IMG/VR virus record: IMGVR_UViG_2917886563_000007
Length of the DNA stretch: 64,000 nucleotides
Source of the DNA: a virus
Lineage: Duplodnaviria > Heunggongvirae > Uroviricota > Caudoviricetes
Strand: one strand, 5' to 3'
The notes beneath the pieces were generated by a model. That model saw only the letters and a program-made list of their open reading frames with translations, was not told the DNA's origin and did not search any database. The position numbers and the translations under genes were made by a program. This document shows positions 32,074 through 37,224 of the stretch, piece by piece; position 1 is the stretch's first letter, and each line of letters opens with the position of its first letter.

Positions 32074-32584
32074 TGAACTCTCTTTGTTTGTTAAATAAAA
32101 AGTTTTATTCCTGAACAACGGAACACGCTGATATTAATGCAACCAATGAATTGTTGTTGTTATTTGGAGGTTATATAGTGGTATGAATGTTATTATGCGA
32201 TGTCTCTGAGTGATGGGGTAAGGATTATATGATTCGCTTTTGAGATTTACCTATGTCAGGCGTTGCTGTTCATGTTCGTCCCCGTTGTCAGTCTTCTTAG
32301 TCTGAGCTAATGTCATCATCAATGGGTTATCAGTTTTCTCTGAAGTTATATAATTAATTGAGCGCCATAGCACCATGGGGCATTGTTGAATTTCATCTTC
32401 AATTGATTTTCCATAATCAACTCGCCATAATCATGTCATCGGAGCCTGAACACCTCCGGTGACTTCTGCGCTAAACGGGGACGTTTATGCGCACACACAA
32501 TCTAAACTCTCTTCTCCCTTCACAGATGCAGAAATGCACCTGCGATTTTTTGCATCCAACGTTTGACCTCTGCGGAGGTGAAGC

Positions 32585-33040
32585 GTGAACCTCCCACAAG
32601 ACGGCATCAAATTACATCGCGGCAACTTCACCGCTATCGGTCAGCAGATCCAGCCTTATCTGGAGGATGGCAAATGCTTTCGCATGGTGCTTAAACCGTG
32701 GCGCGAGAGACGCAGTCTTTCCCAGAATGCACTCAGCCACATGTGGTACAGCGAAATCAGTGAGTACCTCATCAGCAGGGGTAAAACGTTCGCTACTGCA
32801 GTATGGGTAAAAGATGCACTCAAACACACATACCTCGGTTATGAAACCAAGGACCTGGTTGATGTCGTAACCGGCGAAATCACTACGATCCAGTCGTTAC
32901 GCCATACCTCCGATCTTGATACCGGAGAGATGTATGTCTTCCTGTGTAAGGTTGAAGCCTGGGCGATGAATATTGGCTGCCACCTGACTATTCCGCAGAG
33001 CTGCGAGTTCCAGCTGCTGCGCGACAAGCAGGAGGCGTAA
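32585..33040 (+). CDS. ninB: NinB/YbcN-family recombination protein
   Basis: 151-aa ORF with NinB-like core (…[21 protein letters not shown]…). Confidence 0.7.
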
Positions 33041-33210
33041 TGGCTACACCGCTTATTCGTGTCATGAGCGGACACATCTACAGAGTACCAAATCGTCGTA
33101 AGCGTAAGCCTGAGCTGAAACCATCCGAAATACCAACACTGCTCGGATATACCGCCAGCCTGGTTGATAAAAAATGGTTGCGACTGGCAGCAAGGAGGAA
33201 TCATGGCTGA
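33040..33210 (+). CDS. ninE: NinE-like small protein
   Basis: 56-aa [31 protein letters not shown]…[13 protein letters not shown], found by manual translation (below ORF-track threshold). Confidence 0.5.
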   Translation: MATPLIRVMSGHIYRVPNRRKRKPELKPSEIPTLLGYTASLVDKKWLRLAARRNHG

Positions 33211-33493
33211 TTTGAGAAAAGCAGCGCGTGGTCGGGAATGCCAGGTAAGAATCCCTGGCGTATGTAATGGCAATCCTGAAACGTCTGTACTGGCACATAT
33301 CCGGCTGGCTGGATTGTGCGGTACCGGTATCAAACCGCCAGACCTGATTGCCACCATTGCATGTTCTGCCTGTCACGACGAAATCGACCGCCGCACACAT
33401 TTTGTCGATGCTGAGTATGCAAAAGAATGCGCGCTGGAAGGTATGGCGAGAACGCAGGTTATCTGGCTGAAAGAGGGGGTAATCAAGGCGTGA
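33203..33493 (+). CDS. DUF1364-like nin-region protein (YbcO-like)
   Basis: ORF 33164..33493; probable start [32 protein letters not shown]…; Cys-rich. Confidence 0.6.
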
Positions 33494-33852
33494 ATACTTA
33501 CTACATCACACTACCCTGGCCGCCGAGCAATAACCGCTACTACCGCCATAATCGCGGGCGCACGCACATCAGCGCAGAGGGGCAGGTATACCGCGATAAC
33601 GTCGCCCGAATCATCAAAGGCTCCATGCTGGATATCGGTCTGGCTATGCCAGTGAAAATCCGTATTGAGTGCCACATGCCGGATCGCCGTCGCCGTGACC
33701 TGGATAATCTGCAAAAAGCAGCTTTTGACGCACTCACCAAAGCAGGTTTCTGGCTGGATGATGCTCAGGTCGTTGATTATCGCGTTGTGAAAATGCCCGT
33801 TACCAAGGGTGGAAAGCTGGAACTGATCATCACCGAACTGGGGGATGAATGA
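33490..33852 (+). CDS. rusA: Holliday junction resolvase RusA
   Basis: GTG start; 120 aa [26 protein letters not shown]… matching E. coli RusA as recalled. Confidence 0.9.
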
Positions 33853-34068
33853 TGTGTGAGTCATATATGGCAGAACTCCTTCGCTACCGCTGGGGGCGCC
33901 TGCGCTTATATCGTTTCCCGGTTCTGTTTTGACCGATTACCGGATACTGAAGAATTACGCCAAAACACTGGCAGAGACAATTGTATGAAGCCAGAGATAA
34001 CGATCGGTTGATGCCGTTTTATTGTTTTTTGCTGCCAATTGGCGTGCTGGTGTAAATGGAGAGCGAGA

Positions 34069-34821
34069 ATGAATCTTGAGGCCTTACCAAAATATTACTC
34101 CCCAAAATCTCCAAAATTGAGCGATGACGCACCGGCGACAGACTCAGGTGGTTTATCAATTACGGATGTGATGGCTGCGCAGGGGATGGTGCAGTCGAAA
34201 GCACCGCTTGGGTTTGCCTTATTCCTGGCAAAAGTTGGTGTTCAGGACCCTCAGTTTGCGATTGAAGGTCTGCTCAATTACGCGATGGCACTGGATAACC
34301 CGACATTGAATAAATTGAGTGCAGAAACACGGTTACAGATTATTCCTTACCTCGTGAATTTTGCCTTTGCTGATTATTCCAGGTCTGCGGCAAGTAAGGC
34401 TCGCTGTGAGCATTGTGCTGGTACGGGATTTCATAATGTATTGCGCGAAGTGGTGAAACATTCCAGAAGCGGGGAATCCGTTATCAAGGAAGAGTGGGTG
34501 AAGGAACTATGTCAGCATTGTCATGGTAAGGGAGAAGTCAGCACAGCGTGCAGAGGGTGTAAGGGTAAAGGTATTGTCCTGGATGAAAAAAGGACCCGGC
34601 TTCATGGCACGCCTGTTTATAAGATTTGTGGGCGTTGCAATGGAAACCGGTTTAGCCGTTTACCAACCACACTGGCGCGGCATCATGTCCAGAAACTGGT
34701 ACCGGACCTGACGGATTATCAGTGGTACAAGGGGTATGCTGATGTTATTGATAAACTGGTTACAAAGTGCTGGCAGGAAGAAGCATATGCAGAAGCACAG
34801 TTGAGAAAGGTGACAAGATAA
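34069..34821 (+). CDS. Q: late antiterminator Q (non-lambda type, zinc-finger rich)
   Basis: ORF 34039..34821; ATG 34069 after GGAG; CxxC…CxxC clusters (CEHCAGTG…CQHCHGKG…CRGCKGKG…CGRCNG); position between rusA and lysis genes. Confidence 0.6.
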   Translation: MNLEALPKYYSPKSPKLSDDAPATDSGGLSITDVMAAQGMVQSKAPLGFALFLAKVGVQDPQFAIEGLLNYAMALDNPTLNKLSAETRLQIIPYLVNFAFADYSRSAASKARCEHCAGTGFHNVLREVVKHSRSGESVIKEEWVKELCQHCHGKGEVSTACRGCKGKGIVLDEKRTRLHGTPVYKICGRCNGNRFSRLPTTLARHHVQKLVPDLTDYQWYKGYADVIDKLVTKCWQEEAYAEAQLRKVTR

Positions 34822-34926
34822 ATAATTTTCGCCGAAGATATCGACATGATGCTTGCATTTTTCAAAAAATATGGATAGGATTTTCTCAACGATGGGCTTT
34901 GTATGTCCGGTGTTGAGAAAAAGTAG

Positions 34927-34950
34927 AAAACCCGCTAATGAGCGGGTTTT
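34927..34950 (+). terminator. tR'-like terminator downstream of Q (late leader)
   Basis: aaaacccgctaatgagcgggtttt hairpin followed by gtgtttt. Confidence 0.6.
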
Positions 34951-35188
34951 GTGTTTTAAATGGGGAGGTGGCTGGATGTCTAAAATAAACATTGCTTCCA
35001 AGTGTACAACTATGCGTTAATGGCTGCGTCGGTTTGAAGAACAGACGATATACGAAGTAGTTTACTAAAGCAGTTCTCATTTCAGGTGTTATTCACTTAT
35101 TCCTTCTTTGAGTCTCTCCAATTAAGTACGAAGTCGTTTCTGTTATACAAATCATTTATGCCGAAAGGCTCAAGTTAAGGAATGTAGA

Positions 35189-35404
35189 ATGTCAAATAAA
35201 ATGACTGGTTTAGTAAAATGGTTTAACGCTGATAAAGGTTTTGGCTTTATTTCTCCTGTTGATGGTAGTAAAGATGTGTTTGTGCATTTTTCTGCAATTC
35301 AGAATGATAATTATCGAACCTTATTTGAAGGCCAAAAGGTTACCTTCTCTGTAGAGAGTGGTGCTAAAGGTCCTGCAGCAGCAAATGTCATTATTACTGA
35401 TTAA
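35189..35404 (+). CDS. cold-shock protein (CspA family; CspB/CspI-like prophage copy)
   Basis: 71-aa ORF with RNP motifs KGFGFI and VFVHF. Confidence 0.9.
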
Positions 35405-35603
35405 AATTCATAGCTTGTCTGTATACGATAACGAAGAAGGCTGATGCCTGAGTAGAGATGCAGATAGAGTTGTGGGTATTGAATCCCATTTTGTGGTGAA
35501 GTGCAGGTTTGCTGCATGAATAGTTTTACAGTAGAAGCTAACTGCTGGCATAGCAATACAAAGTGCGTAAGTGGGTAACTACCACAAAAAGCACCACAAT
35601 CTC

Positions 35604-35626
35604 AAACCCGCGCAGGCGGGTTTTTT
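35604..35626 (+). terminator. Rho-independent terminator after csp
   Basis: aaacccgcgcaggcgggtttttt. Confidence 0.75.
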
Positions 35627-35685
35627 ATTATCTGATTTAAATATATTATTAAAATATAAAAACTCTTTGTAAGTAATCAAAACAC

Positions 35686-35856
35686 TCAGGCAACAGCTTT
35701 AAGATTTGTTTGGAATACTTTGTTGCAATGAGGGCAGATCAAAAGGGCACCTTTTTGTACTCTAGAAAAACTGTGTTCTGATTCTTGGGTACAGTTTGGG
35801 CAGGAACATTTTACGAGATAATTACGGCGTGATTTTGAGTCTTTACGTTCTGACAT
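35686..35856 (-). CDS. small zinc-ribbon protein (2x CxxC)
   Basis: Manual translation of minus strand: MSERKDSKSRRNYLVKCSCPNCTQESEHSFSRVQKGALLICPHCNKVFQTNLKAVA (56 aa). Confidence 0.45.
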   Translation of the reverse strand: MSERKDSKSRRNYLVKCSCPNCTQESEHSFSRVQKGALLICPHCNKVFQTNLKAVA

Positions 35857-36077
35857 AGGCTTTTCCTGTATAAATGGCCGTATACATTACACTAAATAGA
35901 AAAATATATCCCGCATTATTATTTAATAGATGGTTTTTCTTTTAAAATATTTAACCACATTATTTTAATTTTCTGTTTTTTGAGCGTCGTTGAGAACAAC
36001 GTTTGCTGTAAAAACTAACCCGTAGACTCCGATCTTTTCAAACATATTGCACCATCCGTGTACATCGGGGTGAGGAT

Positions 36078-36293
36078 ATGAAATCAATGGATAAGTTAAC
36101 AACAGGTGTCGCCTATGGCACCTCTGCAGGCAGTGCTGGCTACTGGTTTTTACAGTTGCTCGATAAAGTCACGCCATCACAGTGGGCGGCAATAGGTGTG
36201 CTGGGTAGTCTGGTATTTGGCCTGCTGACGTACCTGACAAACCTTTATTTCAAGATTAAAGAAGATAAGCGTAAGGCTGCGAGAGGTGAATAA
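36078..36293 (+). CDS. S: holin (phage 21 S-like pinholin)
   Basis: 71-aa ORF matching phage 21 / DLP12 EssD holin as recalled (…[20 protein letters not shown]…). Confidence 0.9.
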
Positions 36294-36790
36294 TGTCGCC
36301 ATCATTACGCAAGGCTGTTGCAGCTGCTATTGGTGGTGGGGCTGTTGCCATAGCGTCTGTGCTCATCACTGGTCCGAGTGGTGACGATGGTCTGGAAGGT
36401 GTCAGCTACATACCATATAAAGATATCGTTGGCGTATGGACTGTATGTTACGGGCACACCGGAAAAGACATTATGCTCGGTAAAGCGTATACCGAAGCAG
36501 AATGCAAAGCCCTCCTGAATAAAGACCTTGCCACTGTCGCCAGACAAATTAACCCGTACATCAAAGTCGATATACCGGAAACAACGCGCGGCGCTCTTTA
36601 CTCGTTCGTCTATAACGTGGGCGCAGGCAATTTCAGAACATCTACTCTTCTTCGCAAAATAAACCAGGGCGATATCAAGGGCGCATGTGACCAGCTACGT
36701 CGCTGGACATACGCTGGCGGTAAGCAATGGAAAGGCCTGATGACTCGTCGTGAGATTGAGCGTGAGGTCTGTTTGTGGGGGCAGCAATGA
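36293..36790 (+). CDS. R: SAR endolysin (phage 21 R-like lysozyme)
   Basis: 165-aa ORF with N-terminal SAR hydrophobic segment and lysozyme catalytic region (…[16 protein letters not shown]…). Confidence 0.9.
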
Positions 36791-37224
36791 GCAGGGTAAC
36801 CGCGATTATCTCCGCTCTGGTTATCTGCATCATCGTCTGCCTGTCATGGGCTGTTAATCATTACCGTGATAACGCCATTACCTACAAAGAACAGCGCGAT
36901 AAAGCCACGTACATCATCGCTGATATGCAGAAGCGTCAACGTGATGTAGCAGTACTCGACGCCAGATACACAAAGGAGCTTGCTGATGCTAACGCGACTA
37001 TCGAAAGTCTCCGTGCTGATGTTTCTGCTGGTCGTAAGCGCCTGCAAGTCTCCGCCACCTGTGCAAAGTCAACGACCGGAGCCAGCAGCATGGGCGATGG
37101 AGAAAGCCCAAGACTTACAGCAGATGCTGAACTCAATTATTACCGTCTCAGAAGTGGAATCGACAGGATAACCGCGCAGGTTAACTACCTGCAGGAGTAC
37201 ATCAGGACGCAATGCCTGAAATAA
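36787..37224 (+). CDS. Rz: i-spanin Rz
   Basis: ORF 36775..37224; start [17 protein letters not shown] (N-terminal TM) then coiled-coil. Confidence 0.85.
36980..37171 (+). CDS. Rz1: o-spanin Rz1 (nested in +1 frame within Rz)
   Basis: 63-aa ORF with lipobox LLVVSAC and Pro-rich mature region, fully embedded in Rz. Confidence 0.8.

Follow-up and report, generated by a model that had tools for sequence, protein, structure and literature searches.

In lambdoid prophages, the interval between the gene encoding the late antiterminator Q and the holin gene S is a classic slot for morons. In phage lambda, the late leader includes the promoter pR', a sigma70-dependent pause at +16/+17, the 6S RNA and the terminator tR', and the sequence AACGAT serves there as a -10-like element that induces the sigma70-dependent pause at which Q loads. 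In the Qin prophage of Escherichia coli K-12, the same slot is occupied by additional genes (essQ-ynfU-cspB-cspF-ynfS-ydfT, with ydfT encoding Q), among which cspB is an established cold-induced gene. The corresponding interval was analysed in a stretch of 64,000 nucleotides (nt) of caudoviral DNA (IMG/VR virus record IMGVR_UViG_2917886563_000007), referred to below as the window. The interval (34822–36077) is bounded exactly by the Q stop codon, as the Q open reading frame (ORF) ends at 34821, and by the ATG of the holin gene at 36078. It is very probably the late-leader region of a lambdoid prophage that carries a Qin-type moron cassette, composed of the cold-shock gene cspB and, on the opposite strand, the small gene ynfU. 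Every feature of the interval is already known and annotated, and the whole is an ordinary E. coli prophage cassette.

A megablast search of 5426 complete E. coli genomes matched the whole interval at 99.8 % identity in four strains, including SF-468, and the Prokaryotic Genome Annotation Pipeline (PGAP) names ‘cspB’ and ‘ynfU: putative zinc-binding protein YnfU’ in these genomes. All four elements that an earlier, sequence-only reading had placed in the interval were found where it had put them, and its remark that csp genes are known from this slot in Qin agrees with the K-12 gene order. The novelty that it implied for the small opposite-strand protein did not hold, as YnfU already has a name, Pfam and NCBIfam families and a PGAP annotation. 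Terminator-like sites are enriched within 34700–36200 (seven, compared with 0.9 ± 1.1 in shuffled sequences). A simple sigma70 scan of the region returned promoter-like sites at the level of the shuffles (five versus 4.5 ± 2.0) and flagged neither the pR' homologue, nor the ynfU element, nor the putative cspB promoter described below. Promoter assignments were instead based on homology and conservation.

Downstream of Q, a plus-strand homologue of pR' is found at 34853–34881. When aligned with lambda, K-12 and CFT073, its -35 element (TTGCAT, 34853–34858), 17-nt spacer and -10 element (TAGGAT, 34876–34881) match the TTGACT-17-TAAATT of lambda pR' column by column; the -10 element reads TAAAAT in the K-12 Qin and CFT073 copies. 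This homology suggests that the element acts as a promoter. The alignment equates position 34888 with the lambda start site (+1, lambda 44587). The pause element AACGATGGG, at +1 to +9, is identical to that of lambda, and all four sequences (lambda, window, K-12 and CFT073) have the same initial transcribed sequence, CTCAACGATGGG. The -10-like element AACGAT, followed by GGG, lies at 34888–34896 and, by analogy with lambda, may induce the same pause. Further downstream, the terminator scan identified an intrinsic terminator (plus strand, 34927–34957) with a stem-loop at 34927–34950, the same coordinates at which the sequence-only reading had proposed a tR'-like late-leader hairpin, in a region that aligns with lambda pR'-tR'. 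The hairpin has a 10-bp stem with five G-C pairs, a 4-nt loop and the U-rich tail GTGTTTT. The predicted fold of 34880–34960 has a free energy of -35.5 kcal/mol, compared with -15.0 ± 2.6 kcal/mol for shuffled sequences (z = -7.8), and the stem is kept in K-12 and CFT073, with a substitution in the loop. As the lambda alignment puts +1 at 34888, the hairpin is assigned to tR', and as the hairpin and its U tract would end the RNA at about 34955, the late leader (34888–34957, +1 by homology) is expected to be short, about 66–70 nt and most likely close to 68 nt.

The tR'-like reading of the hairpin is well supported. The stem is, nevertheless, symmetric enough to score as a terminator in both orientations, and in Qin and CFT073 both cspF and ynfS are transcribed towards it. 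It is thus conceivable, though very unlikely, that it ends the Q transcription unit, or stops antisense RNA arriving from the cspF-ynfS side, instead of terminating the late leader. The hairpin lies 39 nt downstream of the lambda-aligned +1 with an intact pause element in between, which is the defining position of tR', and it has been kept in the window although cspF and ynfS are missing. Moreover, these roles and that of tR' are not mutually exclusive. A second strong stem-loop, TTTTCTCAACG...TGTTGAGAAAA at 34882–34921, spans the pR' start site and the pause element. As an inverted repeat, CAACGA...TCGTTG, occupies the equivalent place in lambda, the nascent late leader may have a conserved hairpin at its 5' end. 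This stem is weaker in CFT073 and K-12, where the substitutions are only partly compensatory.

The Csp gene of the cassette encodes the CspB paralogue of the CspA family. Its coding region (35189–35404, plus strand, 71 amino acids, aa) matches the Pfam cold-shock domain (CSD) with 108.9 bits (1e-31, cut-off 27) and the CspA-type NCBIfam model PRK10354 with 143.3 bits (cut-off 130). The RNP1 (KGFGFI) and RNP2 (VFVHF) motifs are readable in the translation, and the PGAP name is the same. The coding region is preceded by a cspA-type 5' untranslated region (5'UTR) thermoregulator (35028–35188), which starts with the cold-box-like sequence GUCGGUUUGAAGAACAGAC; the Rfam cspA model RF01766 matches 35028–35420 over its full length (model 1–428 of 428) with 155.9 bits (gathering threshold 78, E = 5.6e-42). 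A putative promoter can be read at 34992–35021 (TTGCTT, an 18-nt spacer and GTTAAT preceded by TG, with an A/T-rich block upstream), at the distance from the 5'UTR start that would be expected by analogy with cspA. The terminator that the sequence-only reading had assigned to the gene was recovered as a stem at 35604–35623 followed by TTTTATT (fold z = -2.9), at the end of a 3'UTR (35405–35629, with the T tract reaching about 35629). At about 200 nt, this 3'UTR is unusually long; compared with CFT073 and K-12, it is well conserved apart from an 82-nt indel at 35490/35491. The 82 nt present in K-12 and CFT073 and absent from the window contain a strong Shine–Dalgarno (SD) sequence, TAAGGAGG, with an 11-codon mini-ORF (MKQWPAYLAIT) after it.

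The opposite-strand ORF (35686–35856, minus strand, 56 aa), described by the sequence-only reading as an unrecognized protein with two CxxC motifs, is YnfU. It matches Pfam PF23499 with 107.7 bits (cut-off 27, E = 2.5e-31; residues 1–49 on model positions 1–49 of 49) and NCBIfam NF038384 with 79.8 bits (cut-off 36; model positions 1–51 of 52). The protein is identical to YnfU of SF-468 and CFT073 (WP_001405948.1) and shares 55 of 56 residues with K-12 b4776. Both motifs are present as C19-P-N-C22 and C41-P-H-C44, and these four cysteines are putative zinc ligands. The N-terminal tail is basic, the net charge counted from the sequence is about +6, and SEHSFSRVQKG forms a conserved loop/helix, corresponding to the SEHSF(S/T)RVQKG segment of the family. 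Residues P20, C22, S26–F30, K35, P42 and C44 are invariant in 27 aligned sequences. Among the complete E. coli genomes, ynfU DNA was detected in 1649 of 5426 (about 30 %), nearly always as a single copy.

The length of this ORF is by itself unremarkable, as 62 ORFs of at least 25 aa occur in the surrounding 4 kb; the neighbouring DNA is A/T-rich, small ORFs are plentiful and the initial ORF list had skipped this one, so a chance antisense ORF yielding no protein in the window strain had to be considered. That reading is effectively refuted. In a scan of one genome per species, which returned 80 ynfU loci, 77 of 79 loci retain an intact ORF that starts at the same ATG, a length of 51–60 aa is found in 77 of 79, and the SD sequence is likewise conserved. 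Across 73 distinct coding sequences, the median ratio of non-synonymous to synonymous substitution rates (dN/dS) is 0.12 and the mean ratio of the corresponding polymorphisms (pN/pS) is 0.23. Third codon positions are the most variable, and in both shifted frames the ratio exceeds 1. The gene is under strong purifying selection, and the curated profile matches of the ORF, which span 1e-23 to 1e-31, also argue against a chance origin. Furthermore, the nearly identical K-12 orthologue is translated: it shows start peaks in Ribo-RET, which traps stalled initiation complexes, and a western signal for the tagged protein. Translation in the window strain is indirectly supported by the low dN/dS and the conserved SD and ATG. 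Neither of the refuting conditions that the sequence-only reading had named, missing conservation or a missing ribosome footprint, applies to the gene and its K-12 orthologue.

Upstream of ynfU, the SD sequence AGGAAA (35867–35862) and a promoter-like element, GTGTAATGT (35892–35884, containing the -10-like TAATGT at 35889–35884), occupy 35892–35862 on the minus strand. The consensus of this element, GTGTATGGT, i.e. GTGTA(T/A)(G/T)GT, lies about 30 nt before the ynfU ATG in 32 of 33 aligned species loci and is kept regardless of what lies further upstream. This constancy in all contexts suggests a promoter that travels with ynfU together with a short leader, with transcription presumably starting near 35877. 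A cspA-like thermosensing leader for ynfU was also considered and dropped, as Rfam searches at a permissive threshold yielded no minus-strand match and none upstream of the gene, and the conserved element is only about 30 nt from the ATG; two Trp_leader matches (E = 0.6–0.9) are merely the two terminator hairpins.

By analogy with lambda, these elements could operate as follows. Transcription from pR' would start at about 34888, and the sigma70-RNA polymerase would pause at AACGAT. In the lysogen, where Q is absent, the transcript would end at tR' (34927–34957), giving a leader RNA about 68 nt long, whereas upon induction the Q-loaded polymerase would pass tR', cspB and its terminator, cross ynfU in the antisense direction and enter the holin and lysis genes. 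With its own promoter, thermosensing 5'UTR and terminator, cspB would form an autonomous unit that may thus be expressed in the lysogen. Similarly, ynfU would be an autonomous unit on the opposite strand, expressed in the lysogen from its conserved promoter and short leader and silenced by convergent late transcription.

YnfU of K-12 was discovered by Ribo-RET and validated by western blotting of a chromosomally SPA-tagged protein, and its level was the highest among the new small proteins tagged in that study (Weaver et al. 2019, bioRxiv 10.1101/511675). The same authors pointed out its two CPxC zinc knuckles, along with a PSIPRED match of moderate strength to the PA0128 zinc domain. The protein was detected anew by PIRT-seq (PMC12350097), and later literature cites it only as a putative metal binder, its zinc binding being proposed in the searchable literature from the sequence motif only. 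A low-frequency intergenic ynfU/cspB polymorphism from a silver-nanoparticle evolution study, which contains no functional test, was not counted as evidence.

An AlphaFold model built on a shallow alignment was unusable, with a mean predicted local distance difference test score (pLDDT) of 57; a diverse alignment raised the mean to 73, with 78–84 over residues 11–50. In the latter model, strands 14–18, 25–29, 38–40 and 47–49 and a short helix (30–35) bring both knuckles together with zinc-ribbon topology, although the model itself contains no metal; YnfU is thus predicted to be a four-stranded zinc ribbon with a basic N-terminal tail. The top Foldseek matches in the PDB were archaeal ribosome-bound small zinc-finger proteins (9o17_AZ, E = 0.13; 9fhl_C), Tim15 (E = 0.19) and HVO_2753, and the YnfU profile matched Tim15 (2e2z, E = 0.0096), L44e (0.034) and 2akl (PA0128, 0.37). 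None of these matches is significant, and together they define only the fold class, a generic zinc ribbon. Like YnfU, the Tim15/Hep1 DNL finger, the N-terminal ribbon of PhnA/YjdM (PA0128), the archaeal ribosomal zinc-finger proteins and eL42/L44e have two CxxC knuckles on beta-hairpins, and the YnfU model superposes on generic zinc ribbons over 36–41 residues at 2.3–3.2 Å. Membership in two of these families was rejected: the PhnA/YjdM ribbon (Pfam PF08274) reached 22.4 bits with a cut-off of 30.8, and the DNL zinc finger (Pfam PF05180; Tim15/Zim17/Hep1) reached 13.4 bits with a cut-off of 27 (E = 0.076), no DNL motif (H-L-I-x-D-N-L) being conserved after C44.

The Tim15 likeness could nevertheless suggest that YnfU is a protein-binding regulator, for example a DNL-type finger of the Tim15/Hep1 kind that escorts an Hsp70/DnaK-type chaperone or another large protein. 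Tim15 is the top profile match, with a CxxC..S.H...KG..LI.CPxC alignment, and ranks third in Foldseek with a probability of 0.90. An ORF recognized by eye as encoding an IbpA-like small heat-shock protein neighbours ynfU in three Kosakonia-group loci, and most small proteins are expected to bind larger ones (Weaver et al., 10.1101/511675). However, all scores for such a role are below threshold, the Tim15 alignment requires two insertions, the DNL motif after the second knuckle is missing from the consensus of the YnfU family, and no chaperone gene is consistently found near ynfU among the species loci examined. We therefore consider this reading improbable.

The YnfU family is small and narrow, as a HMMER profile search of 1.84 billion representative proteins returned only 43 matches at E ≤ 1e-3; long multi-stretch profile matches appear to be repeated zinc knuckles. 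A word-indexed search yielded 49 homologues, nearly all from Enterobacteriaceae by their source names. A plasmid search returned just four matches, including one 4.9-Mb record and one 1-kb fragment, and the possibility that ynfU is a plasmid gene was rejected. Four loci (L007, L029, L043 and L045) come from assemblies titled Veillonella parvula metagenome-assembled genome (MAG), Vagococcus sp., Kocuria sabuli and Bacillota MAG. The first of them has an E. coli-like gene layout with protein identities of 94–100 %, and all four are probably contaminating Enterobacteriaceae contigs and not occurrences beyond the family. The CspF/CspH clade has been reported to be restricted to Enterobacteriaceae and to be of uncharacterized function (PMC6719143), and the range of the plausibly assigned ynfU loci, which all come from this family, matches that of the clade.

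Within Enterobacteriaceae, 56 of 80 species loci have a CSD gene no more than 1 kb from ynfU, and nine different layouts are represented among them. The commonest (24 loci) has ynfU convergent with cspB and followed by cspF (ynfU> <cspB cspF>); in others, ynfU precedes cspF on the same strand, diverges from cspB or follows it in tandem. In Yokenella, cspF and ynfU are encoded on one strand and separated by 35 nt. In 22 of 80 species loci, a YmcF-like small cysteine-rich gene (PF23641) is found a few hundred bases or less from ynfU; elsewhere, genes of this kind follow csp genes. Near ynfU, they lie directly upstream of and divergent from ynfU or after the neighbouring CSD gene (Atlantibacter L062–L064, L072; L046, L060, L070, L071, L080, L083, L085; L090). 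Across Enterobacteriaceae, ynfU is thus tightly linked to csp and YmcF-like genes, in arrangements that have been reshuffled repeatedly. Similar neighbourhoods are found around some distant members of the family: one (P0063) diverges from a CSD–YmcF-like gene pair and only one gene lies between another (P0078) and a CSD gene. In addition, distant members in two independent contexts (L088; L096–L098) have a DUF2058 (YaiL-like) gene directly after ynfU, followed in one case by a CSD gene.

The position of ynfU in the window raises the possibility that it serves the phage, as a moron expressed in the lysogen (for superinfection exclusion, anti-defence or lysis timing) and placed antisense beside the holin gene so that late transcription shuts it off. 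In E. coli, the gene is indeed always divergent from the holin in the Q-S slot: this holds for the best 80 viral-contig loci, all of which are protein-identical copies, and for phages HannyBb, Tritos, 2H10 and PhiR63_1. A Klebsiella phage carries ynfU divergent from its holin gene with no csp gene, and a distant YnfU member (P0066) lies antisense beside a phage lysis cassette. However, apart from Escherichia/Shigella, only a few loci have phage Q, holin or lysozyme genes next to ynfU; most species-level homologues are non-phage, with none of these genes within 4 kb, and most csp-linked species loci are outside prophages. In phage PHB10, ynfU is accompanied by cspB- and cspF-like genes near the integrase, outside the lysis region. 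The PADLOC anti-phage defence models gave no YnfU match at E ≤ 1, and PHROG matches were weak (E ≥ 0.0026) and restricted to families of unassigned function. A role in the service of the phage is therefore unlikely.

Constraint on ynfU, its own promoter and its persistent adjacency to csp and YmcF-like genes point to cold-shock or RNA biology rather than phage biology. Our best guess, which is a weak one, is that YnfU may be a basic zinc ribbon with RNA or the ribosome as its binding target, in a process shared with the neighbouring Csp paralogues. Only tentatively can it be proposed that YnfU is a dedicated, RNA- or ribosome-binding partner of an Enterobacteriaceae-specific csp islet (comprising CspB-type, CspF/H-type and YmcF-like genes) that lambdoid phages have captured into the Q-S slot. 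Several points weigh against such a Csp-linked role. In 24 of 80 species loci, no csp gene lies closer than 1 kb to ynfU; these loci represent ordinary chromosomal contexts with neighbours that, from their ORF sequences, we take by eye to be fliE/fliF and genes for an aldehyde dehydrogenase and an IbpA-like small heat-shock protein. Several distant members, such as P0061 and P0070, are likewise found in unrelated chromosomal contexts, so the linkage is frequent but not obligatory; it could also reflect co-mobility of the islet and not a shared function. Moreover, the 5'UTR of ynfU is short and carries no cspA-like thermosensor, and the searchable literature contains no experiment that assigns a function to YnfU or addresses its cold induction. 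Should YnfU prove to be such a dedicated partner, this would provide the first functional handle on both YnfU and the uncharacterized CspF/CspH clade. As a genome feature, the interval adds little, as about 30 % of complete E. coli genomes carry annotated Qin-type cspB and ynfU genes; its residual value is as a lead on an uncharacterized, well-expressed small protein and on a csp-ynfU linkage that is conserved outside prophages.

The cassette is flanked by Q and the lysis genes. The Q gene upstream (34069–34821, plus strand), which encodes 250 aa from the ATG used by PGAP and is labelled ‘antitermination protein’ in SF-468, matches Pfam PF03589 (4e-53, 177.9 bits) and PHROG 127 (2e-107), as well as the solved structures of lambda Q (PDB 7ubm, E = 3.5e-38; 4mo1, E = 3e-25). 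By these matches, the protein is of the lambda Q type, with a cysteine-rich insertion. The extra segment, encoded at 34405–34650, reads CEHCAGTG ... CQHCHGKG ... CRGCKGKG ... CGRCNG and resembles the CxxCxGxG repeats of DnaJ, scoring 30.8 bits against the DnaJ zinc finger (Pfam PF00684), just below the cut-off of 32.7. Between the ynfU promoter region and the holin gene, an A/T-rich spacer contains a small G+C hairpin, CGTTGAGAACAACG, followed by TTTGCT (35988–36001), which is kept in CFT073. The holin gene (36078–36293, plus strand) encodes a phage 21-type class II holin (Pfam PF04971, 121 bits, cut-off 26; ‘essD’ in PGAP). On the basis of sequence and Pfam matches only, the lysis cassette at 36078–36790 resembles the pinholin/signal-anchor-release (SAR) endolysin type of phage 21, with the dual-start motif MKSM at the start of the holin and a signal-anchor-release-like N-terminus of the lysozyme.

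The closest known system is K-12 Qin (ydfT(quuQ)-ynfS-cspF-cspB-ynfU-essQ; b1559–b1556, b4776), which shares with the window the Q family, pR'/tR', cspB with its 5'UTR and terminator, the opposite-strand ynfU and a class II holin, at 91–95 % nucleotide identity over 34031–36294. The window differs from Qin and CFT073 in lacking the 82 nt of the cspB 3'UTR and about 553–640 nt that carry cspF and ynfS; the cspB-ynfU pair thus persists without cspF in this prophage. This layout is rare, as only four complete E. coli genomes reach 99 % identity or more over the whole interval, compared with about 1600 that carry the cspF form, and only five of the best 80 viral contigs lack cspF. The 29-aa ‘hypothetical protein’ encoded between cspF and Q in CFT073 (2772–2861 of locus L002; K-12 b4750) is YnfS (Pfam PF23697, 1e-21), a validated small protein whose gene is deleted along with cspF in the window variant. 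The prophage is also mosaic, with DLP12-like and not Qin-like flanks: the nin region (32403–34051, ybcN-ninE-ybcO-rusA-ylcG) is 93 % identical to K-12 DLP12, and essD/rrrD (36066–37035) is 87.5 % identical.

DLP12 itself (quuD-nmpC-essD) has the same moron slot between the antiterminator gene and an S21-type holin gene. The sequence-only reading had named it as a second comparison, and its slot holds neither csp nor ynfU; its Q is a different, 127-aa protein (quuD), and the occupant is the porin gene nmpC, interrupted by IS5. The lambda late leader has in common with the window the Q family, the aligned -35, spacer, -10 and +1, the identical CTCAACGATGGG and an intrinsic terminator downstream. 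It differs in that lambda Q is a 207-aa protein without the cysteine-rich segment of the 250-aa window protein, its leader is the 194-nt 6S RNA whereas that of the window would measure about 68 nt, and the space between tR' and the holin gene is occupied by orf-64 in lambda but by cspB and ynfU in the window. Finally, small proteins encoded beside csp paralogues have precedents in the cysteine-rich YmcF-like proteins (PF23641), whose genes lie downstream of CSD genes, and in YnfR, which is encoded downstream of cspI and is cold-shock induced (PMC6001520). In contrast to these, YnfU forms a separate family with its own promoter, and its gene is mostly convergent with or divergent from csp and not co-transcribed with it, the exception being the cspF-ynfU arrangement of Yokenella.

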